Assembly (NCBI GenBank): GCA_964016885.1
Contig: OZ024745.1
Location: forward strand, 24,614,001 to 24,678,000
Reading direction: 5' to 3'
Length of the DNA: 64,000 nucleotides
Origin: Eledone cirrhosa
Lineage: Eukaryota
The notes under the pieces were generated by a model. It did not search any database and was not told the DNA's origin. It saw only the letters and a program-made list of their open reading frames with translations. Every line of letters begins with the position of its first letter. Positions within the stretch are counted from its first letter, which is position 1. The position numbers were made by a program, and so were the translations under genes. Positions 4,050 to 59,449 of this stretch are shown in pieces.

Positions 4050-4114
<65 letters not shown>

Positions 4115-4162
4115 TAAGAGAGTAAAACAAAGAATCCTTTAATACATCAAAAGTTTTTATTA

Positions 4163-4200
4163 GCCGACAATGTTTCGTCCTATTAAGGACTCATCAGGGC
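4163..4200 (-). ncRNA. Minimal type I hammerhead ribozyme (inverted copy)
   Basis: Exact reverse complement of 4306-4343. Confidence 0.88.
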
Positions 4201-4305
4201 AATCAAAACAACAAGAAGTAATATCGGCAGATACAAGCCGGAAGCTCCGAAGAATATGGAGTGTACATACACTAAAGTCTTGCAAAAATATATGATAATA
4301 AAGAT

Positions 4306-4343
4306 GCCCTGATGAGTCCTTAATAGGACGAAACATTGTCGGC
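4306..4343 (+). ncRNA. Minimal type I hammerhead ribozyme
   Basis: GCC-CUGAUGA-GUCCU/UAAU/AGGAC-GAA-ACAUUGU-C-GGC: canonical core and GUC site. Confidence 0.88.
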
Positions 4344-4607
4344 TAATAAAAACGTTTGATGTATTAAAGGATTCTTTGTTTTACTCTTAATTTTTTGGCT
4401 CTGTTTAACTGCATTGAGCTATACCTTTTGCTGTCATTTCTATAATACGAAGAGGGTGTTTAACTCCAACACGCTCCAGTATTCTAATCCTTATATATAT
4501 ATATATATATATATATTAATATAGATGAGATTCTACAGGACTAGAAGTGTTTCATTCTATATTAAAACTTTTATACTCTGCTATGTATTGAGTACCTTAA
4601 CTTACCT

Positions 4608-7455: not shown

Positions 7456-10400
7456 CTACAGAACAATGTAGAGAGAAGGCCCATTTACACGGGCCATTCT
7501 CGCTTCTTTCACCCACCTTTCATAAAACTGTCTGGGGCCAAGCACTTCTCTCTCCATCCTGATCCTTCTTCCGAAGTGGTATCGGAAGAAGTAAACCAGG
7601 TGATGGCCGGAGAGAAAGTCACCCGACCTCAGACCTTTCAGGCGCGTCCACCACACAACCTCTTTCATCATGGCTATTACGCACAGAAAGACCGCCTCTG
7701 CTTCATTTCTGAAGGAAGGAGGCGGCTTGATGTTCACCACAGACTCGGCGGTTAATCGAATCGGCGCCACACGCGACAGCAGTCGTTCGACGTAGCCCCA
7801 CAGATCGGCAACGCCCGGGCAGTGTACCAGTGCATGCGCAACGGTTTCCTCGTCGCGCACGCATCTGGGACAGATCTTTTTCGCGGGATCCCTGCCCGGG
7901 CGCCCGTATCTGTAGAGCTTTTCTCGAACGGGCAGAGCCCCCCGGTAACCCTGCCAGGCTAGGGACCTCTGGAAGTTGTCCATGGGTCCCGGGCCGAAAG
8001 TTCTACCGAACAGGCTGGCCAGTTCGTCCTCCTCCATGCCTAGCGACTCTGCAAGGGTGTCGTCTCCCTTGCTAGCCACCAACCCTCTATAGAATGTCGA
8101 GGTGGATTCTCCACTGATAGTCGGGTCCGCTTGCCAGATAGCCGTGAGCGCCTGGGCACACTCGGTGTGCCAGTTGCCCAGTTTTCTCGGTCTTTGCTTC
8201 ACCCAGGATTGCAGTTCGGTGAGCGAGACGAGCTGTGGGAAGGCTCGCCTCACAAACGGGGCCCACACCGGTTGACCGTTGAGGAATACCTGTAGATGCC
8301 GTAGCCTCAATGCGTGCCTACGCATCAACAGCCACGGCATACCCAGCCCTCCTTTCGAAGGGTGCTGGCAGCAGATGGATCTCCTCACCATGGGAGGCTG
8401 CTTCTTCCAGAGGAACTGGAAGAGCATGCGTTCCATGATGGTGAACTTTTCCTTGGGGCAAGGCACGACGGTCAGGCGGTAGTAGATGACGGACGCTATG
8501 TAAGCGTTCGTCACCTCCGCCCGACCTTTCAGTGATAGTTTGCACTTGGCCCACTTCTGGGTCAGCGCAAACACCCTGCTCGTCACCTCGCCCCAATTCT
8601 TCTCCACCTGGAGGTCCGGTCCGAACCAGACCCCGAGCAGCTTCACCGGGCCCTCCGTCCACCGCCCGACGACACCGTCTAACGGCATCGGTTTGCCCCT
8701 CCACGTTCCGAGTTGCAAACCGACTGACTTGTCCTGGTTCAGCTTAGCCCCCGTCAGCCTTTCGTATTCCTCCAGTAGGGTGGCGATCGCCCCGATTTCC
8801 GAGGCGTCCGCCACCATTACTGTTACGTCGTCGGCATAGGCCGAGACCGCTTTGTGCAATCCCGGTTCCAGGGGTATGCCCCGCAGCAACTCCAACTTCC
8901 GCAGCAGTGGCTCGAGAGTCAATACGTACAGAAGGGAGGAGAGGGGGCACCCCTGTCTGATGGACCGGGTGATTTGAAACGGCTCCGAGAGGTAGCCGTT
9001 TACTTTAATCCTAGAGTAGATGTTGCCACTGTGCATGGCAGAAATCCAGCCCCTGAAAACGGGTCCGAATCCCGCCGCCGCTAGCACCGCATCCAGGTAA
9101 CCATGGTCGACCCTATCGAACGCCTTAGATTGATCCAAGTTGATCAGGGCCCCACCAAAGCCGAGTTCGTTGCCAACCCTCTCTACGATGTATCGCATGA
9201 GGTGGAGGTTGTCGTGAATGGACCTGGACGGGATAGCGCATGTCTGCGCGTCTCCCACCAAACCACCCACCACAAGCGCCAACCTCTTCGCCAACACCTT
9301 GGCCAAAATCTGTAACTCTGCATTTAGCAGAGTTATGGGCCTAACGTTACTTAAGTCGTCCCCTTTGCTCTCGTCCTTCCTCTCTAGCGTGACCACGCCC
9401 TTGGTCACAGAACAGGGAATTCTCCCGTTCTGTTGCCAGTTGCAATAGATAACCTCGAGGAGTTCGGAGAACAAGACCGGCATAGCTAAATAAAGTTCGT
9501 ATGGTAGACCATCGAGACCCGGGGATTTGCGTCTGCTGCATTGGCTGAGCGCTTCCCCGATTTCAGTGGCTGTGATTGGCCTTTCGCAGCACTCCGCTTC
9601 GCCGAAAGACGCGGTAGACCGTCGAGGTATGGACCGAAGTCCACATCCCCGCCCGGCCCCCCGCCCCCTCCGAACAGTCGAGCAAAGTGCCTTTGAAAGG
9701 CCTCGCACATCCGCTCAGGTTCAAGGATCACCCGTCCATCCTGGTCTCGCAAAGATCGAATGGTGGATTTAATCCCACTCTTGGCTTCTGTCACGCGGGC
9801 CCAGCTAACAGCTTTGGTCCCCTCGTTTCCTAAAGCACGTATTTTACTTCGGACAACGCAGCCTTCGTGCTTCGCGTCAAAGAACTGGCTCAACGCCGTT
9901 CTCGCCGCTAACACTCTGGCCACGTCTCCGCTCCTAATCGCCTCTTCTAGTTTATCTGTTAACTCCCTTTCCTCCCTATTTCTATTTGCCGCTAGTTCCT
10001 TACTGTAACCTATCGAACTTACTCTAATCTCTCTCTTTAGAGATACCCACCACCTGCTGTTGACGATCGCTCCCGTCAACCGCATCTTAACTAAGCTACT
10101 AATCCGGTTCCTGTAATCTTTCTTTGCCGGCAAGGACAAGTTCATCTTCCAGTAACCGGGACCCTGTCTATGCGTTCTATCAAGGTTGACCACGCAGGTC
10201 ACTAATTTGTGATCTGAATAGCCAACCATGATCAGTTCTGGACAACTAAATACGTCCCTATCCTTACTCCTAACCAAAAACCTATCTAGGTACGATCTAG
10301 ATTGTCCACTGCGGTTTGCCCAGGTCCAGGTTGGCGCAGTTGGACAATCTAGTCGAAATCTATCGACCAGGTCGAATCGATCGAGTAACCCCTTGAGGCT

Positions 10401-10883
10401 GCTACACCCCCCTCTATCGGGACATGCCCCTGCATACTCCCAACGCGCATCTAGGATTCCATTCCAGTCCCCCACTAAAAGCAGGGAACGCGACGTTCCT
10501 AGAAAAGTCTCCAGACGCTGGAAGAAGTCGGCTCTTTCCGCCCCGAAGGGAGCATAAAGACCGACCAGTCTGAAAGCCCCGCCTTCACCGCCTCCGACGT
10601 CCAGCACCAGTAATCGACCCCCCGGGTCCGAGTGAACAATCTGTACGTCGAGAGTCAGACGTTTATCCAGCAGTACGGCAACTCCCCCCCCCCCACCTCC
10701 GGGTTGACAGAGAGATGCGTGCATCTTAAAGTCATCGAAGGCGGGCGCCAGCTGTCTCACGCTGCTGATCCGACTCTCGCAAACAACCATCACATCTATA
10801 CTTTGTGACCTGAGGTCATTTAGAAGCTTTGCTTGCTTCCAAGCTGAGCCCAGGCCACGCGCGTTCAAACAGCCAACTCTCAA
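7456..10883 (-). pseudogene. LINE ORF2: APE endonuclease + reverse transcriptase, one frameshift near 9600
   Basis: APE motifs LNARG, GDWN, SYLDRF, YSDH. RT motifs KSPGLDG, RPITLLN, DQSKAFDRV, QGCPLS, AYADD. C-terminal CPRC..ETVAHALVHC. Confidence 0.95.
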
Positions 10884-10888
10884 TTGAT

Positions 10889-12728
10889 CTATTTTGGTGT
10901 TGAAAGTGAAGAAAGAAAAGCACCTACCTCTCCGGGTTGTGTAATTTCCATGGCATCAGGTGTGTTGGGTGGAGGGATGTTTTGTGGTGGTGTGGGGGTA
11001 TCCGTGTGTGGTGGGGTTGGGGTATTTGGAGTTGTGTCAGGGAGAGGGGCGGTTATGGGGAAATCTTTCAAGAGGACGCGATTTAATGGTTTTAAACAGG
11101 GGGGGCTCACGTCCCGTCTAAATTGTTCTTTTAAGGAACGATAAAGGTCCAGAGGGACCTTTATCATTTTTAAATGGGTGAAGTTCTCTGTTGAGATAAA
11201 GTTTGGCCCTTCGGTCTGCACCATAGGGTTATTGCTTATTAATTTAACCAGTTTTTTGTTTTCTTTATTTATATATGTGTATTGCAACATCTTTTTTTGT
11301 GATGCTGTCAATGTTTCGGAGAGGGGAGGCGCAGATTTATTTTTGTTTGTTGAGGGTGGGGTGTTTTTGATTGGAGTTGGTGTTTGTGTGTGGGTTATTT
11401 GTGGTGTGCTGGGTGTGTGTTTTCTTTTTTTTCTTTTAACTTGTCTGAAGGCTTCTCCTCCTTCTTCTTCAGAAGTTGGGGGAAACTCTTCAGCGCTAGG
11501 TGGGAGGGACGTGTTGTGTGGTTGTTTTTTTTTTGCGGGAGGGGTAGATTTGTTACTGTTTTTTTTATTATTTGTTTGGAATGGGTTTTGTGGTGGTGGT
11601 GGTGGTGGTGGTGGTAATGTTTGTGTCGTGCTTGTGGTTGGTGATGGTGATGTTTGTATTGTGGTTGGTGGTGGTGATTTTTGTGTCGTGCTTGTGTTTG
11701 GTGCTGGTGGTGGTGATGTTTGTGTTGTGTTTGTGGTTGGTGGTGTCTGTATTTTGTTTGCTGTGTGTGGTATTAGTGTATTTTTGGAGGTGGGTGGTGT
11801 TGGTGTACTGTTTGTGGTGGGTGTGGGCAATAGTCCTTTTTGGGGGATACGTTTCGGGCAGTTAGCCTTAACGTGTCCCCTTTCCATGCATAAATAGCAT
11901 GCTGGTCTTCTCCCCTCTACAATTATGTCTATTGGGGTAAGGTCATCCAGCCAGATGCGATCCGGGATTTGTGCTATTCTTTCGGGCCTCATTTGGACTA
12001 GTATGTCGAGGCCCATTCCCAGGAACGCATCTCCAGTTGCCTTCCCCATTGACAGCATTGTGTCTTCGCCCATGTCTATGAAGCCAGCAATAGCCCACCA
12101 GAAGTCCATTGTGGGCAGCATTGTTTTTACTTTTACTCTCTGTGTTCTTCTACCCATGTAGGAGGGATAGAAGCTGTATGTTGTCGATGAGAGTGGGCTT
12201 AGGGAAAGCTTCTCCGCCGTTTCCTTGTCTTTTGTTAAGACCGAAATGCTGCCATAGAGTCGGTCCTTTCGTATGAAGAGAATATTCTTCATATAGTCTT
12301 TTAGGACCAACTCTATTTCCATTTGGCTGGGCTGTGCTGGCTTTCTTGTCTGGTTCAGTATAGTTCTGAAGAGAACTGTGCTCTCTGTTCTGGCTTTCTT
12401 GAATTCTGGGGGGGGAGTTAATGGAAAACATTCTGTTCTCCCCCAAGACTATTTGTTTTTTCGCTTCGGCCAGTTTTTCTCTGGCGGCAGTTAAGTCAAT
12501 TGGTGTGTATATTATGGATTGTTTTGTTTTCTGGGCGAAAGTTGCCCTGTTGTTATTTGTATTATTTTCTGTTTGTTTGTTTTCCGTTTGCTCATTTTCC
12601 TTAACATTTGTTTTTTCATTTTCCTTGTTTGTTTCGTTGTCTAATTTTGTTGTAATTATTTTTTGTTCTTCAGACTTGGGGTGCGTGGCAGAGCTAATGG
12701 CAGACATGTCTGCCATCTTTTCCGCCAT
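10889..12728 (-). pseudogene. LINE ORF1 (gag-like nucleic-acid-binding protein, zinc knuckle), split by one frameshift
   Basis: CYLCMERGHVKANC is CX2CX4HX4C, followed by a Pro/Thr-rich tail. ORFs 12150..12755 and 10889..12322 join (…NSPPEFKKARTES…QMEIEL) if the G8 run at 12408-12415 is read as G7. Confidence 0.85.
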
Positions 12729-13199
12729 GCTGCCAAGAAAGAAATTTTTCGGCAAAAAAATAGATATTTATTTTACCCCCTAAAAAGGGGCTAAATGCAA
12801 AAATGTTTCCCTAAATAACAGGGGTTAGTGTTCCAAATGTGTTGCACTGAAAAATTTATCCGGTACTTACAATAGTAAGGGTAAATCCCGATGGAATAGC
12901 GGAGCCGATGTGAAGCGTGTCTTACTCTATCAATATAGAGAGATAGATAGATAGATTGTAGCGTGTGTCTGCGTGTGTAACATAGCCGATTGACAAAAAG
13001 GGTTCGATAAAATACTTATTAGGGACCGATATAATCGACTGAGAGCCTTTAAGGCGATATCCCAACATGACTACAGTCTAATAGATGGAAGCTGTATAGA
13101 AATAACACACATACAGAAAATAGTTTTTTGTGTAAGATGTCGTGAGAAGATGAAAGACAGCAAAAAAAGTATAAAATTAAAATGATTGAATGATTTTGT

Positions 13200-16560: not shown

Positions 16561-16766
16561 CTGAATGTCTGACCCTTTATTTCAAACTTTCAACCAGTCT
16601 GTGTCAATATACGAGGGTCGCTTGAAATGTCCACTTTCACTTCTTTCTTTTAAAGACAGCAGCAGTATTGTAATTTATGGAAACCTATCCCAGACAGAAT
16701 TGTTTGCCATGGGAGCTACAAATGTAAGGACCCCCTTGAGTGGCACATGGTCTAGTTGTAGCATTG

Positions 16767-17732
16767 GATGATAGGGGATCACCCTTAGCGACACAGGGTC
16801 TTGCTATACCACAGGATGATAGGGGACCGTCCTGAGCGACATATGTTCGATGGACACCAAAGGGTGATAGGGGACCGTACTGAGCGACATATGGTCTATG
16901 GACACCACATGATGATAGGGGACCGCCCTCAGCGACACAGGGTCTTGCTACACCATAGGATGTTAGGGTACCGCCCTCAGCGACACAGGGTCTTGCTACA
17001 CCACAGGATGATAGGGGACCGTCCTGAGCGACACAGGGTCTTGCTACACCATAGGATGTTAGGGGACCGTCGTGAGCGACATATGGTCTTGCTACACCAC
17101 AGGATGATAGGGTACCGCCCTCAGCGACACAGGGTCTTGCTACACCACAGGATGATAGGGTACCGCCCTGAGCGACAGAGGGTCTTGCTACACCACAGGA
17201 TGTTAGGGGACCGTCCTGAGCGACACAGGGTCTTGCTACACCACAGGATGATAGGGTACCGCCCTGAGCGACAGAGGGTCTTGCTACACCACAGGATGTT
17301 AGGGGACCGTCCTGAGCGACACAGGGTCTTGCTACACCACAGGATGATAGGGGACCGTCGTGAGAGACACATAGTCTTGCTACACCACAGGATGATAGGG
17401 TACCGTCCTGAGCGACACAGGGTTTACTACACCACAGGATGATAAGGGACCTTCCTGAGCGAAACAGGGTCTTGCTACAACGCAGGATGATAGGGGACCG
17501 TCCTCAGCGACAGAGGGTCTTGCTACACCACAGGATGTTAGGGTACCGTCCTGAGCGACATATGGTCTTGCTACACCACAGGATGATAGGGAGCGTCCTG
17601 AGCGACATATGGTCTTGCTACACCACAGGATGATAGGGAGCGTCCTGAGCGACATATGGTCTTGCTACACCACAGGATGTTAGGGGACCGCCCTGAGCGA
17701 CACAGGGTCTTGCTACACCACAGGATGATAGG
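16767..17732 (+). repeat. 48-bp minisatellite, about 20 copies
   Basis: Unit GGATGATAGGGGACCGTCCTGAGCGACACAGGGTCTTGCTACACCACA. Confidence 0.95.
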
Positions 17733-17973
17733 GTATGTTTTGAGATGGAATTGGATATGATATCTTGAGGTATGAGAGACCACATATACGTTTTCAATAT
17801 GTCGTATACGTGTGTGTGTCCTGGGATGAGTGGGTGTGTATAGACAGAGACACACATATATATATACATATATGGAATATTTAATATAGAAATTGCTTCA
17901 ACAGGACGAGAACTGTTTCATTCGAAGGAAACAGTTCTAGTCCTGTAGAAGCCATTTCTATATTAAATACTTT

Positions 17974-24497: not shown

Positions 24498-26270
24498 TTC
24501 TATTTATTTGCCACCAGGGCATCAAAGATTGGGACAAATACAAAGGGGGGAGTTTACATACATTTAAAAAGACGTGTAAAAAACATATAACAAATTAAAT
24601 TTAACAATCGATGTCCTCAATAGGGAGGGGCGTTGACATGGGTCGCACACACCCCCGAAAAAATGTGCAACCCTCCTCTTCAGGAGCACAAAGAGCGGGT
24701 GCTTCCTTCCTCTTCTCATTCTTCTCCTCTCTCATCTACAGGCTGATATAGAGAGAAGGCCCATTCACTCGGGCCATTCTCGCTACTTTCACCCATCTTT
24801 CATAAAACTTGCTGGGGTAGAGCACCTCTCTCTCCATTCTGATCCTTCTTCTAAAGTGGTACTTGAAAAAAAAGACCAGTTGTTGGCCGGAGAGAAAGGT
24901 GTCTGACCTCAGCCCTTTCAACCTTGTCCACCATACAACTTCTTTCGCCATGGCTATCACACAGAGAAAAACCGCCTCTCCTTCGTTTTTGAAAGGGGGA
25001 GGCGGTTTGATTGTGACAATGTTCTCGGTGGTCAACCGGATTGGTCCCACCCGCGACAGTAGTCGTTCTACATAGCCCCACAGGTCAGCAACGCCCGGGC
25101 AGTGTACGAATGCGTGTGCGACGGTTTCCTCGTCACGCACGCATCTTGGACAGATCTTCTTCGAGGGGTCCCTACCCGGGCGCCCGTGTCTGTAGAGCTT
25201 GTCCCGAACGGGTAGAGCTCCTCGGTAACATTGCCAAGCCAGGGACTTTTGGAAGTTGTCCCTCGGTCCCGGGCCAAACGTCCTACCGAACAGACTGGCC
25301 AGCTCGTCTTCCTCCATGCCCAGAGCCTCTCCGAGAGCGTCGTCGCACTTACTGCGCACCAACCCTCTATAGAATGTTGAGGTTGAGTCTCCTCTGATTG
25401 CCGGATCCGCTTGCCAGAGGGCCGTGAGCGCCTGGGCACATTCAATGTGCCAGTCGCCCACTTTTCTCGGTCTTTGCTTGACCCAGGATTGCAGCTCGGT
25501 GAGTGAGACGAGTCTCGGAAAGGCTCGCCTCACAAACAGGGCCCACACCGGCTGACCGGTGAGGAATACCTGGAGGTGCCGTAGCCTTAATGCGTGTCTA
25601 CGCATCGTCAGCCACGGCATCCCCAGCCCTCCGTTCGAAGGGTGTTGACAGCAGATGGATCTTCTCACCAAAGGAGCCCGCTTCTTCCAAAGAAATCGGA
25701 AGAGCGCGCGCTCCATTTTGGCGAGTGTTTTCTCTGGGCAAGGCAGGACGGTCAAGCGGTAGTAGATGACGGACGCTATATAAGCGTTCGCCACCTCCGC
25801 TCGACCTTTCAAGGATAGTTTGCACTCGGCCCACTTCTGGGCGAGTGCAAACACCTTGCCCGTTACCTCGTCCCAGTTTTTCTCCACCTGGAGGTCCGGT
25901 CCGAACCAGACCCCGAGCAGCTTCACCGGTCCCTCCGTCCAGCGTCCGACGATGCCGTCGGAGGTCATCGTTTTGCCCTTCCACGTCCCGAGTTGCAAAC
26001 CGACGGACTTGTCCCGGTTCAGCTTGGCTCCTGTGAACCTTTCATATTCCTCCAGTAAGGTGCCGATCTGCCCGATTTCCGAGGCGCACGACACCATTAC
26101 TGTCACGTCATCGGCGTAGGCCGACACCGCTTTCCGCAATCCCGGTTCCAAGGGGATGCCCTGCAACAGCTCCAGCTTCCGCAGTAGTGGCTCGAGAGCC
26201 AGCACATACAGGAGGGCATCCCTGTCGAATGGATCGCGTGATTTGGAACGGCTCCGAGAGGTAGCCGTTC
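24498..26270 (-). mobile_element. 5'-truncated Tx1-type LINE copy (3' half of RT to 3'UTR)
   Basis: The 489-aa ORF 24736..26205 is closely similar to 7456..9708 (AYADD, CPRC..HAFVHC) and has the same 3' terminus. Confidence 0.95.
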
Positions 26271-26799
26271 CAAATCACGCGATCCATTCGAGGGACGTAA
26301 CTATGCTGGAAAGCATGGCGTCCGACCCTCTACTGATACTGCCAATCCACGCCCTTGATGCTTATTAATATAGAGGGGGGATTAGAAGAGAGTTACGTGT
26401 ATTAGATATAGAGAGGAGGAGAGTTTGGTGCTAATAGATATAGAGAGATACACTCTCAAATTCATAAGTGTATGTGTGTGTAAGGTGTGTGTATATACGT
26501 GTGTATGTGTAAGAAAGTGTGTGGGGGAGGCGTGTCTAGTAAAATATAGTCGAAATAAATTGAAAATAGATAACTCGAATAATTTTGATATGGCAATTTT
26601 TTTTAATTGTTATATCAAAGATAATTGCAATAAATTAATATAGTTGATTAATGTAGCTGTGTAAATAAATAATATAACTTAATATATGAAAATATTAATA
26701 AGCTACAAGGTTCTGACAAAGATTCCCACTATAAAATGTCAACATATTACTAGTAATTAAGAAAATGAAAAATAATCATTTCCCTTCTTTGAATGATAA

Positions 26800-42879: not shown

Positions 42880-45010
42880 TCTATATATTAATACGCTAAT
42901 ACCTAAGTACCGTACGTCCGACCGTGTCACACTTTCAGTAATATATATATTAATACGCTAATACCTAAGTACCGTACGTCCGACCGTGTGTGTCACACTT
43001 TCAGTACTATATATATTAATACGCTAATACCTAAGTACCGTACGTCCGACCGTGTCACACTTTCAGTACTATATATATTAATACGCTAATACCTAAGTAC
43101 CGTACGTCCGACCGTGTCACACTTTCAGTACTATATATATTAATACGCTAATACCTACGTACCGTACGTCCGACCGTGTGTGTCACACTTTCAGTACTAT
43201 ATATATTAATACGCTAATACCTAAGTACCGTACGTCCGACCGTGTCACACTTTCAGTACTATATATATTAATACGCTAATACCTAAGTACCGTACGTCCG
43301 ACCGTGTCACACTTTCAGTACTATATATATTAATACGCTAATACCTAAGTACCGTACGTCCGACCGTGTCACACTTTCAGTACTATATATATTAATACGC
43401 TAATACCTAAGTACCGTACGTCCGACCGTGTCACACTTTCAGTACTATATATATTAATACGCTAATACCTAAGTACCGTACGTCCGACCGTGTCACACTT
43501 TCAGTACTATATATATTAATACGCTAATACCTACGTACCGTACGTCCGACCGTGTCACACTTTCAGTACTATATATATTAATACGCTAATACCTACGTAC
43601 CGTACGTCCGACCGTGTGTGTCACACTTTCAGTACTATATATATTAATACGCTAATACCTAAGTACCGTACGTCCGACCGTGTGTGTCACACTTTCAGTA
43701 CTATATATATTAATACGCTAATACCTAAGTACCGTACGTCCGACCGTGTCACACTTTCAGTACTATATATATTAATACGCTAATACCTAAGTACCGTACG
43801 TCCGACCGTGTCACACTTTCAGTACTATATATATTAATACGCTAATACCTAAGTACCGTACGTCCGACCGTGTGTGTCACACTTTCAGTACTATATATAT
43901 TAATACGCTAATACCTAAGTACCGTACGTCCGACCGTGTCACACTTTCAGTACTATATATATTAATACGCTAATACCTACGTACCGTACGTCCGACCGTG
44001 TGTGTCACACTTTCAGTACTATATATATTAATACGCTAATACCTAAGTACCGTACGTCCGACCGTGTCACACTTTCAGTACTATATATATTAATACGCTA
44101 ATACCTAAGTACCGTACGTCCGACCGTGTCACACTTTCAGTACTATATATATTAATACGCTAATACCTAAGTACCGTACGTCCGACCGTGTCACACTTTC
44201 AGTACTATATATATTAATACGCTAATACCTACGTACCGTACGTCCGACCGTGTCACACTTTCAGTACTATATATATTAATACGCTAATACCTAAGTACCG
44301 TACGTCCGACCGTGTCACACTTTCAGTACTATATATATTAATACGCTAATACCTACGTACCGTACGTCCGACCGTGTCACACTTTCAGTACTATATATAT
44401 TAATACGCTAATACCTAAGTACCGTACGTCCGACCGTGTCACACTTTCAGTACTATATATATTAATACGCTAATACCTAAGTACCGTACGTCCGACCGTG
44501 TCACACTTTCAGTACTATATATATTAATACGCTAATACCTACGTACCGTACGTCCGACCGTGTCACACTTTCAGTACTATATATATTAATACGCTAATAC
44601 CTACGTACCGTACGTCCGACCGTGTCACACTTTCAGTACTATATATATTAATACGCTAATACCTACGTACCGTACGTCCGACCGTGTCACACTTTCAGTA
44701 CTATATATATTAATACGCTAATACCTACGTACCGTACGTCCGACCGTGTCACACTTTCAGTACTATATATATTAATACGCTAATACCTACGTACCGTACG
44801 TCCGACCGTGTCACACTTTCAGTACTATATATATTAATACGCTAATACCTACGTACCGTACGTCCGACCGTGTCACACTTTCAGTACTATATATATTAAT
44901 ACGCTAATACCTACGTACCGTACGTCCGACCGTGTCACACTTTCAGTACTATATATATTAATACGCTAATACCTACGTACCGTACGTCCGACCGTGTCAC
45001 ACTTTCAGTA
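42880..45010 (+). repeat. Tandem array of 62-bp units (some 66 bp), about 34 copies
   Basis: Unit TATATATATTAATACGCTAATACCTA(A/C)GTACCGTACGTCCGACCGTGT(GTGT)CACACTTTCAGTAC, with no spacers. Confidence 0.97.
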
Positions 45011-45325
45011 ATATAAATCAAAGTCGAATGACGTCAGTGAGACGTGCTAAAACAATGGAAGGGGGGTGGTAGACAATCTACGAAAATCTACGGCGAAAGA
45101 AAATCAAAGAGCGTTGCAACTTTTGGAAAGGAAAGAGAGAAGGGGTTATATAATATATTTAGAGAGAGGGGTTTATAATTTAGAGAAAGGGATGGGTTAT
45201 TATATATATAGAGAAGGGGGTTATAATATATATAGAGAGAGGGGGTTATACTATATTTAAAGAGAGGGGTGTTATAATATATAGAGAGGGGAGTTATCTC
45301 TCTCAACACCGGGTTATTCAGCTAG
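42880..45325 (+). mobile_element. Non-autonomous Helitron containing a tandem array
   Basis: Starts A|TCTATATATTAATAC and ends ...CAACACCGGGTTATTCAGCTAG|T (5'TC, 3'CTAG, AT target, no TSD). Inserted into the (TTA)n tail of a SINE. Confidence 0.8.
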
Positions 45326-47832: not shown

Positions 47833-48395
<563 letters not shown>

Positions 48396-48905: not shown

Positions 48906-48954
48906 AATTTTGCTAAACAAATTCAGAAACGATATATATATATATATATATATA

Positions 48955-49357
48955 TAGATAATTTAATATATCAACTAACATAAGCGCACAGATGCACGCC
49001 TATGCCAGCAAATACATAGGTTATGTCATAGTACCTAGGTGGTTCAATGCAGGAGGATGCAGAACAATAATATAAAAGACGTAAAATAAGAAAATCTCTT
49101 TCAAAAATTTTTTGGAATTATTATTAATACCGAATTATTATTATTTTTATATGAGCCGCCAGTGTCCGCGCATTGCCTGGAGACTCAGCTGAGAATAGAC
49201 TCCCTGATGACGCAATGAATTCTCGACAGTTAGATTACGTAACTGTCTTTATCCCATTGCAGAAACTAATTAGTTGGAGTGAAAATTTAAGTAAGTAAGT
49301 AAAAAATTTTTAAAAAAAATTTTTTGAAAGAGATTTTCTTATTTTACGTCTTTTATA

Positions 49358-49365
<8 letters not shown>
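48955..49365. mobile_element. Inverted partial copy of the 557-bp hammerhead unit (ribozyme 49199-49280, plus)
   Basis: Sequence matches the 50081-52266 array. A smaller fragment lies at 18779-18892. Confidence 0.85.
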
Positions 49366-50043: not shown

Positions 50044-50080
<37 letters not shown>

Positions 50081-50081
<1 letters not shown>

Positions 50082-52266
50082 AATATAGATAATTTAATAT
50101 ATCAACTAACATAAGCGCACAGATGCACGCCCATGCCAGCAAATACACAGGTTATGTCATAGTACCTAGGTGGTTCAATGCAGGAGAATGCAGAACAATA
50201 ATATAAAGGACGTAAAATAAGAAAATATTTTTTTTTTAAAATTTAAAAAAAATGTTTTTCTTACTTAAATTTTCACTCCAACTAATTAGTTTCTGCAATG
50301 GGATAAAGACAGTTACGTAATACAACTGTCGAGAATTCATTGCGTCATCAGGGAGTCTATTCTCAGTTAAGTCTCCAGGCAATGCGCGGACACTGGCGGC
50401 TCATATAAAAATAATAATAATTCGGTAGATCGAACAGCTTGCGAGGACTGGATTCTATGTACCGAAATTCTCACTGCTTCAAGTCAAATGGCCGATTCTA
50501 AAGAATCAATCACGTGACACAGAGGCTAGTTAGAAGGAATGGGATGGTAAGATGACTGACGCCTACTAACACCCCAAAAAAAATTTTTTTAGAAGTGGTT
50601 TTGACAAGTTTGCTGGACAAATCAGTGATTTGGAGATAAATATAGATAATTTAATATATCAACTAACATAAGCGCACAGATGCACGCCCATGCCAGCAAA
50701 TACACAGGTTATGTCATAGTACCTAGGTGGTTCAATGCAGGAGAATGCAGAACAATAATATAAAGGACGTAAAATAAGAAAATATTTTTTTTTTTAAATT
50801 TAAAAAAAATTTTTTTCTTACTTAAATTTTCACTCCAACTAATTAGTTTCTGCAATGGGATAAAGACAGTTACGTAATCCAACTGTCGAGAATTCATTGC
50901 GTCATCAGGGAGTCTATTCTCAGTTAAGTCTCCAGGCAATGCGCGGACACTGGCGGCTCATATAAAAATAATAATAATTCGGTAGATCGAACAGCTTGCG
51001 AGGACTGGATTCTATGTACCGAAATTCTCACTGCTTCAAGTCAAATGGCCGATTCTAAAGAATCAATCACGTGACACAGAGGCTAGTTAGAAGGAATGGG
51101 ATGGTAAGATGACTGACGCCTACTAACACCCCAAAAAAAATTTTTTTAGAAGTGGTTTTGACAAGTTTGCTCGACAAATCAGTGATTTGGAGATAAATAT
51201 AGATAATTTAATATATCAACTAACATAAGCGCACAGATGCACGCCCATGCCAGCAAATACACAGGTTATGTCATAGTACCTAGGTGGTTCAATGCAGGAG
51301 AATGCAGAACAATAATATAAAGGACGTAAAATAAGAAAATATTTTTTTAAAAAAATTTAAAAAAAATTTTTTTCTTACTTAAATTTTCACTCCAACTAAT
51401 TAGTTTCTGCAATGGGATAAAGACAGTTACGTAATCCAACTGTCGAGAATTCATTGCGTCATCAGGGAGTCTATTCTCAGTTAAGTCTCCAGGCAATGCG
51501 CGGACACTGGCGGCTCATATAAAAATAATTAACTGAGACTTAACTGAGAATAGACTCCCTGATGACGCAATGAATTCTCGACAGTTGGATTACGTAACTG
51601 TCTTTATCCCATTGCAGAAACTAATTAGTTGGAGTGAAAATTTAAGTAAGAAAAAAAATTTTTTTAAATTTTAAAAAAAAAATATTTTCTTATTTTACGT
51701 CCTTTATATTATTGTTCTGCATTCTCCTGCATTGAACCACCTAGGTACTATGACATAACCTGTGTATTTGCTGGCATGGGCGTGCATCTGTGCGCTTATG
51801 TTAGTTGATATATTAAATTATCTATATTTATCTCCAAATCACTGATTTGTCGAGCAAACTTGTCAAAACCACTTCTAAAAAAATTTTTTTTGGGGTGTTA
51901 GTAGGCGTCAGTCATCTTACCATCCCATTCCTTCTAACTAGCCTCTGTGTCACGTGATTGATTCTTTAGAATCGGCCATTTGACTTGAAGCAGTGAGAAT
52001 TTCGGTACATAGAATCCAGTCCTCGCAAGCTGTTCGATCTACCGAATTATTATTATTTTTATATGAGCCGCCAGTGTCCGCGCATTGCCTGGAGACTTAA
52101 CTGAGAATAGACTCCCTGATGACGCAATGAATTCTCGACAGTTGGATTACGTAACTGTCTTTATCCCATTGCAGAAACTAATTAGTTGGAGTGAAAATTT
52201 AAGTAAGAAAAAAAATTTTTTTAAATTTTTTTAAAAAAATATTTTCTTATTTTACGTCCTTTATAT
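50081..52266. mobile_element. Tandem + inverted array of a 557-bp unit, each unit with a hammerhead ribozyme (retrozyme / Penelope pLTR-like)
   Basis: Unit starts at 50081, 50638 and 51195, with an inversion at about 51531. Hammerheads at 50275-50356, 50832-50913, 51389-51470 (minus) and 51554-51635, 52111-52192 (plus). Confidence 0.88.
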
Positions 52267-56983: not shown

Positions 56984-57064
<81 letters not shown>

Positions 57065-57286
57065 TTAAAGCAAACATCACGGGGGCTCTATCTCAAAATT
57101 ATTTTTGAAGAGCATTAGAAATGCGCAACCGGTAAAAACTTAAAATTAAAACTGAATACTAACCAATACTTATTACTAATTTTTACTTATTCCTAATTAA
57201 ACTATTTTTCACTGGGAACAATTTGTCAGCATTTTCTTTTCCTTTTACCAATATATCACAACTCGTGTGTTACACCTCTATTCTTT

Positions 57287-57330
<44 letters not shown>

Positions 57331-57334
<4 letters not shown>

Positions 57335-58283
57335 GAAACACACAGATACATGCGGACACACACATATATACATGAATGCATCCGCACCCAACTGTGAGTT
57401 AAGGGTGCCAACTTCACCGATGTTGCTCAATGAATGACTGGGACAGACTAATTCAGTTTGAACCAGACTGAACCAGTATCAGAGTTAAAAATACATTATG
57501 AAGAGAGAAGAAACATTTAGATATAATTAGTAATAAAATGTATCATACCTAAACTGTTCCTAAATTCCTCGACTACGTAGTTTCGTGGCATAAACAAAAA
57601 CAATATATCAAAGATATAGAGTCCTTGCGAGGTCTGCCGACTTATCAAGAGGATACCTCATTTTACTAGTCTCAAGAACGCGTCTACACGACGCGAGAAA
57701 GAATCCCAAAAGGCGGAGGGGGAGACAGTCACGCGATATAACGGTCGAGAAACAGAGCTAAGCCTCTTATAACCACGAAGAAAATACCACGGAGGCGGAG
57801 GGGGTATTCACATCGAGGCCGCAGAAGAGGTAGTGAAGAAGGCGAGAAGTATGAGTAATGGAAGCTTTCCAGTTGTCCCCACACTTCAAAGATTGCTCGA
57901 CCAGAGGGAGTTATTAATATATTTAGAAACACACAGATACATGCGGACACACACATATATACATGAATGCATCCGCACCCAACTGTGAGTTAAGGGTGCC
58001 AACTTCACCGATGTTGCTCAATGAATGACTGGGACAGACTAATTCAGTTTGAACCAGACTGAACCAGTATCAGAGTTAAAAATACATTATGAAGAGAGAA
58101 GAAACATTTAGATATAATTAGTAATAAAATGTATCATACCTAAACTGTTCCTAAATTCCTCGACTACGTAGTTTCGTGGCATAAACAAAAACAATATATC
58201 AAAGATATAGAGTCCTTGCGAGGTCTGCCGACTTATCAAGAGGATACCTCATTTTACTAGTCTCAAGAACGCGTCTACACGAC
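57331..58283 (-). mobile_element. Direct tandem of a 591-bp unit (1.6 copies) with hammerheads at 57566-57653 and 58157-58244
   Basis: UCCUC-UUGAUAA-stem II-GAA-ACUACGUAGU-C-GAGGA in both copies. Flanked by (TA)n. Confidence 0.82.
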
Positions 58284-58302
58284 GCGAGAAAGAATCCCAA
58301 AA

Positions 58303-58346
<44 letters not shown>

Positions 58347-58398
58347 AGTAAATCAAATATGTAAAATTTGGTTTCGTTTATTATAAATTATAAATATG

Positions 58399-58451
58399 CT
58401 GCTATATATATTTCGGTGACAGCCATCATTGGCTGTGACCTCTTCAGGCAG
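58399..58451 (-). ncRNA. Type I hammerhead ribozyme
   Basis: CUGC-CUGAAGA-GGUCACAGCCA/AUGA/UGGCUGUCACC-GAA-AUAUAUAU-A-GCAG. Confidence 0.85.
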
Positions 58452-59449
58452 TCCGAATTGGTGTAGAAAAGACAGGTACACATGTTGTTGAATTGTGTTT
58501 CACTCCGTCAATACATCGATATGTCCAGCTCCTGGGTGTGTCGTTATTCCTCCGAGGAACTGGAATCATATGGGCTAGAACAAACGAATTTCAGCGTCAT
58601 AGGACACGCTCTTATCCCATTGGTCAGTTGTGAGACCATTCCTCAGTCAAAAATCTATAGAAATTCTTCTGAGGCATGTCAGCCTGTTATAGTTGTTTTT
58701 GTCAGAATGTTTAAGTATAGCTGACCTCCTCCATTGTGTTGGTAGTGGTAGTGGTGTTAAGGGGTAATCTAGCAGGTCGGCTTTAGTATGCTGCTGCTAT
58801 GGTCTGAAGAATCTATGTGTGTAAGCTGGCATCTATCCTGCTACCATTTCACGTGGTGGGAGTGTCAAACAAATAAAGAATGCGCGTGTGTTACAACCAA
58901 TATCAAATATTTTGAAAAATATAAACTGTTAATAGGGCAAAAGAAAAAGTACGGCTATTTCTGAACTGATCTAGAAGCTCAAGCTGGACAGGACCCCGTA
59001 CTCACTGGCCTGGTCCAAAATAAGGAAAGTACCACCTGATAGAGGGAGATCTGGCATCTGCAACCTATGTCTAAAATGGTGAGGTATGAGTTGAGGGGAA
59101 TTGGCTGCTATTTTTAGCAGATCATTTGACCTCGAAGAAACTCTATCATGGGTGAAAGTAGTTTTCTTGATGCTGGTAATGGGATGCAACTAAATACCAA
59201 AAAAAAAAATCATGATAACAATAAAAGTTTAGCACAAGGTCACATTTTGTAGGAGAGGGCCTAAGAATATATCGACTCAAATACATAACTTGGACTTTAT
59301 CTCACGTCGACTCAGATACGATTAAAATCTAGGTTAACCTCCACTTAATTTAAACCAGTCACAGAATGTGTGAGGAAACATCTTTTACAAGTAAATAACT
59401 ATCCGGTTACTAAACTAACTAAATAATTGATTAGTTACCTCATTAATAA

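Follow-up and report, generated by a model that had tools for sequence, protein, structure and literature searches.

A 591-nt repeat in the genome of Eledone cirrhosa is very probably a non-autonomous Penelope-like retroelement (PLE) of the non-LTR retrozyme kind, whose RNA we predict to be cut by a hammerhead ribozyme and copied into (AT)n DNA by PLE-type reverse transcription. The copy described here, a recent one, lies in a stretch of 64,000 nucleotides from contig OZ024745.1, hereafter the window, and belongs to a high-copy mobile family with more than 7,000 predicted hammerhead motifs in the genome. Tandem non-coding hammerhead repeats have been described as non-LTR retrozymes (Cervera and de la Pena, 2020; PMC7229834), and these have been proposed to be non-autonomous derivatives of PLEs (Li, Clavereau and Pollet, 2026; 10.64898/2026.07.22.740005). 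The family is functional-looking and ordinary in kind; its tail is unusually long and its insertion rule clean.

The insertion and its predicted hammerheads

A first-pass annotation of the window had proposed tandem ribozyme units 591 nt apart on the minus strand, between 57331 and 58283. The tandem arrangement holds, with 1.65 copies at a period of exactly 591 and no differences in the 387-nt overlap of the two copies. The proposed limits located the element, but its true span is slightly wider, 57326-58303, and abuts (AT)n on both sides. The features are as follows.

57326..58303, minus strand: whole insertion, 978 bp, 1.65 head-to-tail units in a single arm, 5'-truncated at unit position 205
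57917..58303, minus strand: upstream unit, 5'-truncated (unit positions 205-591 remain), with no difference from the downstream unit
57326..57916, minus strand: complete 591-nt unit, non-coding
58244-58157, minus strand: predicted hammerhead 1, core 58239-58233 (U3 58239, A8 58234), stem III 58172-58163
57653-57566, minus strand: predicted hammerhead 2, core 57648-57642, stem III 57581-57572
57491 (unit 426; also 58082), minus strand: the family's 'short' 3' end, 80 nt past the predicted cut, putative reverse-transcription start 1
57326..57490, minus strand: 'tail' of 165 nt that separates the short 3' end from the long one; the latter, 57326, is putative start 2 and is used here
57281..57331, no strand: 3' junction, (AT)n target run that extends into the final bases of the element
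58304..58341, no strand: (AT)n target run at the 5' junction, which is the end of an older hammerhead-bearing repeat

The insertion terminates at the family's long 3' end, does not use the short 3' end at 57491, and would represent a single-arm product from the long site. The longest ATG frame in the 591-nt unit is 75 aa, and the unit holds no open reading frame for a reverse transcriptase (RT) with a GIY-YIG domain. The element is inserted in the terminal (AT)n run of an older repeat (58344-58930, minus strand), and comparison shows no homology between the unit and this adjacent upstream repeat. A C3-G8 hammerhead (core to cut site 58447-58403) lies close to the 3' end of the older repeat, which is 87-92% identical to the 39 best other copies of 3,204 candidates.

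Both hammerheads in the 591-nt tandem have a stem I of 5 bp (UCCUC/GAGGA) and the core UUGAUAA (U3-U4-G5-A6-U7-A8-A9), followed by stem II, GAA, stem III and C17. Stem II (GU.C.GGC/GCC.AC) has one bulge and is closed by a 46-nt hairpin insert, referred to here as loop II. Stem III is a self-complementary palindrome, ACUACGUAGU, and the cleavage triplet is GUC, with the predicted cut after C17 at 58162 in hammerhead 1 and at 57571 in hammerhead 2. A Watson-Crick 3-8 pair, GAA, A15.1-U16.1, H17 and three helices in type I order are all present, as in type I hammerheads. An Rfam search over 57300-59300 returned no hammerhead family even at E<=10, likely because of the variant core and the long loop II, and a CUGANGA pattern has no match to the hammerheads of the unit, just as the annotation had foreseen.

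In the genome at large (3.0 Gb, microsatellite-rich), the best 40 of 945 candidate places for the unit are 99-100% identical. An 18-nt core pattern that left positions 3 and 8 free gave 6,365 genomic matches, against 0 for the reversed pattern that served as control, so the motif is not due to chance; the hammerhead reading is supported. Among the matches, 6,337 cores are U3-A8 and none is C3-G8; U3 is missing from 14, all of which keep A8, and A8 is missing from another 14. A count anchored on stem III (spacers of 8-69 nt), accompanied by a positive control, gave 7,270 U3-A8 cores and 0 C3-G8. The alternative that the window copy is merely a double mutant of a family with a C3-G8 consensus, which the annotation had raised against itself, is ruled out by the lack of any C3-G8 core with this stem III genome-wide.

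The suggestion that U3-A8 is a compensatory change stands in part: the Watson-Crick 3-8 pair is kept, but the aligned genomic cores show no 3-8 covariation inside the family. Compensation is visible only between families, a 557-bp neighbour family being C3-G8, and the direction and timing of the change therefore cannot be read off. The variant itself is already published and hence not new. U3-A8 covariation, with activity in vitro, has been reported in natural hammerheads (Perreault et al., 2011; PMC3088659), and the variant has also been reported in PLE hammerheads (PMC4209133).

Several other repeats lie in the window. The 557-bp family, probably the annotation's 'first' unit, occurs in tandem/inverted form at 50079-52266 and 48948-49362; it has a C3-G8 hammerhead with a long loop II and a palindromic stem III, two ends, 79 nt from cut to short end, a tail of 122 nt and a circular fold with z ~-5. 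Homology between this family and the 591-bp unit was rejected, as the local score of 41 is not significant against 30.8 +/- 5.2 for shuffles (maximum 51), and a 29-nt hairpin common to the two reaches only E 0.03. A short repeat at 56849-56795 (minus strand), with further copies in loci L003, L016, L118 and L125, has a C3-G8 hammerhead, a palindromic stem III and a long loop II. An inverted-plus-direct element at 4050-4500 carries a hammerhead at 4203-4159 that scores 31.7 bits with Rfam Hammerhead_1, below the 34-bit cut-off. Another repeat family is present as an inverted pair at 47968-48357 and as a single copy adjoining the 591-bp insertion at 57050-57300, and a hammerhead scan of it found none. 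LINE-type retrotransposon frames, endonuclease- and RT-like by eye, occur at 7459-12767 and 24739-26274 (minus strand), the first near full length, and minisatellites at 42882-45015 (62 bp, 34 copies, 97% matches) and 16766-17733 (48 bp, 20 copies).

Conservation and folding of the ribozyme

An old subfamily of the 591-bp element, about 75% identical, was retrieved with a query downstream of, and outside, the ribozyme; 27 loci were kept after 3 of 30 had been dropped (two duplicates and the seed locus). All 36 cores at these 27 loci are U3-A8. When the old-subfamily majority is compared with the window unit, 0 of 42 core and helix columns differ, against 12 of 46 columns in the loop II insert (Fisher p = 2e-4) and 124 of 529 non-ribozyme columns (p = 5e-5). 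This pattern argues for purifying selection and agrees with the earlier proposal of selection on function. Column conservation is the strongest support for hammerhead function, without proving cleavage itself.

Folding predictions are less favorable to the active form. The isolated hammerhead region folds no better than shuffles (z -1.08), and the ACUACGUAGU palindrome forms no hairpin alone, though it is predicted to form a duplex of -12.9 kcal/mol with a second copy; a dimer arrangement through a palindromic stem III has been described for PLE hammerheads (PMC4209133). As a circle, the 591-nt unit is predicted to fold at -177 kcal/mol, against -134.6 +/- 6.7 for 40 dinucleotide shuffles, and an old-subfamily unit at -147 against -122 +/- 6.6 kcal/mol with a cruder shuffle. 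The predicted circle leaves the ribozyme largely unformed, with pairing probabilities near zero for stems I and III, and forcing two monomeric hammerheads in a two-unit RNA costs 19 kcal/mol, so that the hammerhead is not the predicted ground state. Such a disfavoured active fold fits a ribozyme that is switched off in the circle, and also fits a weak ribozyme. Between subfamilies, 56 helix pairs outside the ribozyme are altered, 29 of them kept and 27 broken, which leaves the detailed circle fold without clear support.

The disfavoured active fold and the lack of a monomer hairpin for stem III would suit a hammerhead that no longer cuts and is kept for the PLE enzyme as a protein-binding or folding element, as would the report that many retrozyme dimers are inactive in vitro (10.64898/2026.07.22.740005). 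We consider that explanation improbable. Conservation falls exactly on the catalytic core and helices while loop II drifts, the core retains a Watson-Crick 3-8 pair reported to be active in vitro (PMC3088659), and the predicted stem III duplex between two copies is stable. Counting against the main reading, in which the hammerhead cuts, minimal PLE hammerheads are reported to cleave poorly (PMC4209133), no cleavage was reported for 8 of 9 Xenopus retrozymes (10.64898/2026.07.22.740005), and a lizard PLE hammerhead is described as protein-dependent and dispensable for insertion (PMC11167929).

Paired ends, partner enzymes and template

Copies of the family have variable 5' ends, while their 3' ends are fixed at two sites, one 80 nt and the other 245 nt past the predicted cut. 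Of 130 3' ends, 108 run into (AT)n, and flanks of this kind mask any target-site duplication. Units join head to tail, seamlessly and without a coding spacer, up to about five per arm. Single-arm insertions use either site: 14 short and 14 long 3' ends were found among 30 in a first set, and 15 short and 17 long among 34 in a second. Inverted insertions (n=79) comprise 65 short/long, 3 long/long and 1 short/short, along with 10 that have an end elsewhere, which we attribute to alignment breaks or later damage; short/long pairing thus holds for 65 of 69 classifiable inverted insertions. It was found in 41 of 44 classifiable insertions of the first set (p 2e-9) and in 22 of 23 of a second set of new inverted insertions, scored by a rule fixed beforehand. 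Two of the four exceptions resemble nested copies of different age, and one counted short/long pair (L055/L058) is probably a local duplicate. A simple fold-back origin of the inverted arms was rejected, being impossible in 8 of 25 insertions and possible in 17.

The family shows the traits of PLEs, namely 5' truncation, partial tandems, an inverted 5' copy, a tail at one end and microsatellite targets. As reported, the PLE 'tail' is 30-40 bp and often on a single end only, and inverted truncated copies and a (TA)n bias are described PLE traits (PMC8557442; PMC3846280). A lizard PLE in vitro is reported to have two internal reverse-transcription starts, with the tail mapped to the interval between them, and to cut and extend both strands (PMC11167929). 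A search of the open literature returned no paper on the 591-bp family or on a counted end-pairing rule.

Frames for GIY-YIG proteins are abundant in the genome; from 10,595 candidates, 150 were scored and 50 loci inspected (30 + 20). Several of these 50 have RT and C-terminal GIY-YIG frames with a CX4CXXC linker, which is reported to be associated with Neptune elements and microsatellite bias (PMC8557442). One type of autonomous RT-GIY-YIG PLE, at L114 and also at L115, L118, L122 and L124, has U3-A8 hammerheads in both terminal repeats (L114:1952 and 6931, minus strand) and a 67-nt tail. It has two 3' ends with end motifs similar to those of the unit, and 82 nt from cut to short end compared with 80 in the 591-bp unit. 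BLAST of the unit against the terminal repeats of four PLE families, including the L114 type, gave no significant match, and the lack of significant homology makes the L114 family a candidate partner only. A second type of U3-A8 motif occurs at L107:2205. In one contig of run X6, with a loose end at window position 57622, the letters joined to the unit resemble the 3' end of an L114-type PLE, and the flank at the 5' junction of L167 resembles it too. These junctions, each a single case, could reflect chimeric insertion by a shared enzyme.

Partial tandems are also formed by PLE terminal repeats, and the loci inspected were few relative to the candidates, so we weighed whether an autonomous PLE absent from our sample has the unit as its terminal repeat, or whether the unit is a DNA-level satellite spread by duplication. 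Both appear very improbable. At none of the 50 GIY-YIG loci inspected does the unit serve an autonomous PLE as terminal repeat, the sole match among them (L108) being a self-contained inverted insertion, and the head-to-tail units lack a coding spacer. For a satellite in particular, unequal crossing-over is a poor fit to 3' ends that are fixed, 5' ends that vary and single insertions that are dispersed.

For the non-autonomous retroelement, the life cycle might run as follows. An array of units would be transcribed, and two hammerheads, to judge from their anatomy and conservation, would join by their palindromic stem III sequences and cleave the RNA at GUC; the monomer then probably closes to a circle. 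A PLE reverse transcriptase/GIY-YIG protein, presumably supplied in trans, would cut (AT)n DNA and start copying within the RNA at either of two sites, those 80 nt and 245 nt beyond the predicted cut, where the ends are seen. Reverse transcription would pass through several units and halt at variable places. With both target strands extended, one arm per site, the product would be an inverted insertion carrying the 165-nt tail on one side only, which is the pattern observed.

The distribution of sequence variants bears on the form of the template. Units diverge by 0.15% within an insertion, and by the same amount across opposite arms, against 0.59% between insertions, and common variants are uniform within the array in 193 of 202 tests (65 arrays). 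Of the locus-private variants in the 65 arrays, 28 occupy each unit covering the site, 118 occupy a single unit, and 6 occupy more than one unit without filling the array, 4 of these 6 at one nested locus. A variant born in one unit yet filling the whole array would need a monomer bottleneck, such as a circle would give.

The same element and enzyme could instead use a linear multimeric transcript, with the hammerhead freeing the 5' end from read-through RNA or cutting rarely, so that no circle is needed. At L027/L026 a private base occurs in each arm's outermost unit and in no other, an observation pointing to a linear multimeric template, and unprocessed RNA is reported to be the main substrate in vitro (PMC11167929). 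In the old subfamily, moreover, 3 of 54 arm 5' ends fall exactly at the predicted cut and 8 of 54 within -7..+6, where about 1.7 are expected, and two of the arms that end near the cut had first read through one uncut hammerhead. On the other side, the cluster could result from stalling or microhomology at the palindrome, and both the seed locus and a palindromic junction that enters the count twice are part of it. In a larger core-selected set of 175 arm ends, none falls on the cut itself and 3 fall within -7..+6, and ends within unit 340-353 number 1 of 72 and 1 of 92 in core-selected sets, which take in only insertions having the 5' core. Any pile-up of cDNA ends at the cut is thus a weak excess, in the old subfamily alone. 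The linear template is further opposed by the 28 all-unit rare variants against 2 register-specific ones, which favour a monomer bottleneck, and by the failure of a candidate fixed transcript start at unit 122-127 to replicate: it was first seen in 6 of 16 single-arm ends (scan p<1e-5) and then in 1 of 34 in a pre-set replicate (p 0.41). Copying of 5'-truncated linear RNA alone would also not keep arrays long. We consider an exclusively linear template unlikely, and hold with moderate confidence that a circle is the usual template, alongside some linear multimers. No public run listed for the unit is identified as RNA. Runs X1 and X5, of unknown library type, each contain a single closed contig of the unit of 620-621 nt at a depth of ~8; such contigs arise equally from a circle or from tandem DNA, and nothing else of the stretch is present there.

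As a tentative but serious possibility, a dimeric Penelope-type enzyme may read one ribozyme-made circle twice, its subunits using different starts, 165 nt apart, and different target strands. If this were so, asymmetric twin priming would always leave the PLE 'tail' as its footprint, and the family would record in the genome a rolling-circle retrotransposition that a U3-A8 hammerhead drives.

Comparison with known systems

The family is of use chiefly for testing mechanism, by virtue of its scale and its geometry. Because its insertions are young, nearly identical and number in the thousands, one-end tails, inverted arms and multimers, so far described in words, can now be counted. The near-strict short/long pairing and the haplotype shared by the arms set limits on the way in which PLE enzymes, which are related to telomerase, insert, and with a tail as long as 165 nt the two starts can readily be told apart in a reconstituted assay. 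Column-level conservation supplies genomic evidence of selection on a metazoan PLE-type hammerhead, where in vitro results are weak.

Like metazoan non-LTR retrozymes as described (PMC7229834; 10.64898/2026.07.22.740005), the family consists of tandem units that are non-coding, carry a single type I hammerhead and have a GC content below 50%; it has thousands of copies and a highly self-paired predicted circle, and co-occurs with PLEs. It has no LTR structure, judged by its seamless head-to-tail units. At 591 nt the unit is longer than the 170-400 nt of tested retrozyme circles and within the 51-972 bp of the 2026 survey. With U3-A8, a long loop II and a palindromic stem III of 10 nt, its hammerhead resembles those of PLEs, whereas those reported for metazoan retrozymes are canonical, and dispersed inverted insertions with two fixed ends are without counterpart in the retrozyme descriptions compared. 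The circle of the 591-nt unit is a predicted one.

The minimal hammerheads of PLEs, for which ~1,300 matches were reported, with the U3-A8 variant in Schistosoma Cercyon elements (PMC4209133), share with the unit a U3-A8 core, a short stem I, the G10.1-C11.1 pair and a palindromic stem III suited to dimer catalysis. Unlike them as described there, the unit's motif resides in ORF-free tandems and is near-invariant across subfamilies, with a 46-nt structured loop II and no extra base between 9 and 10.1. With EN+ PLEs the family shares 5' truncation, partial tandems, an inverted arm, a one-end tail and AT-rich targets (PMC8557442; PMC3846280), but its tail is 165 nt against their reported 30-40 nt, and the unit has no ORF. 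Two internal start sites are likewise reported for Poseidon PAc in vitro (PMC11167929). The genomic starts are paired one per arm, whereas the strands in that in vitro system are described without a start-site difference. Finally, natural U3-A8 hammerheads as reported are several scattered examples (PMC3088659); here the variant is the fixed core of a 7,000-copy retroelement.
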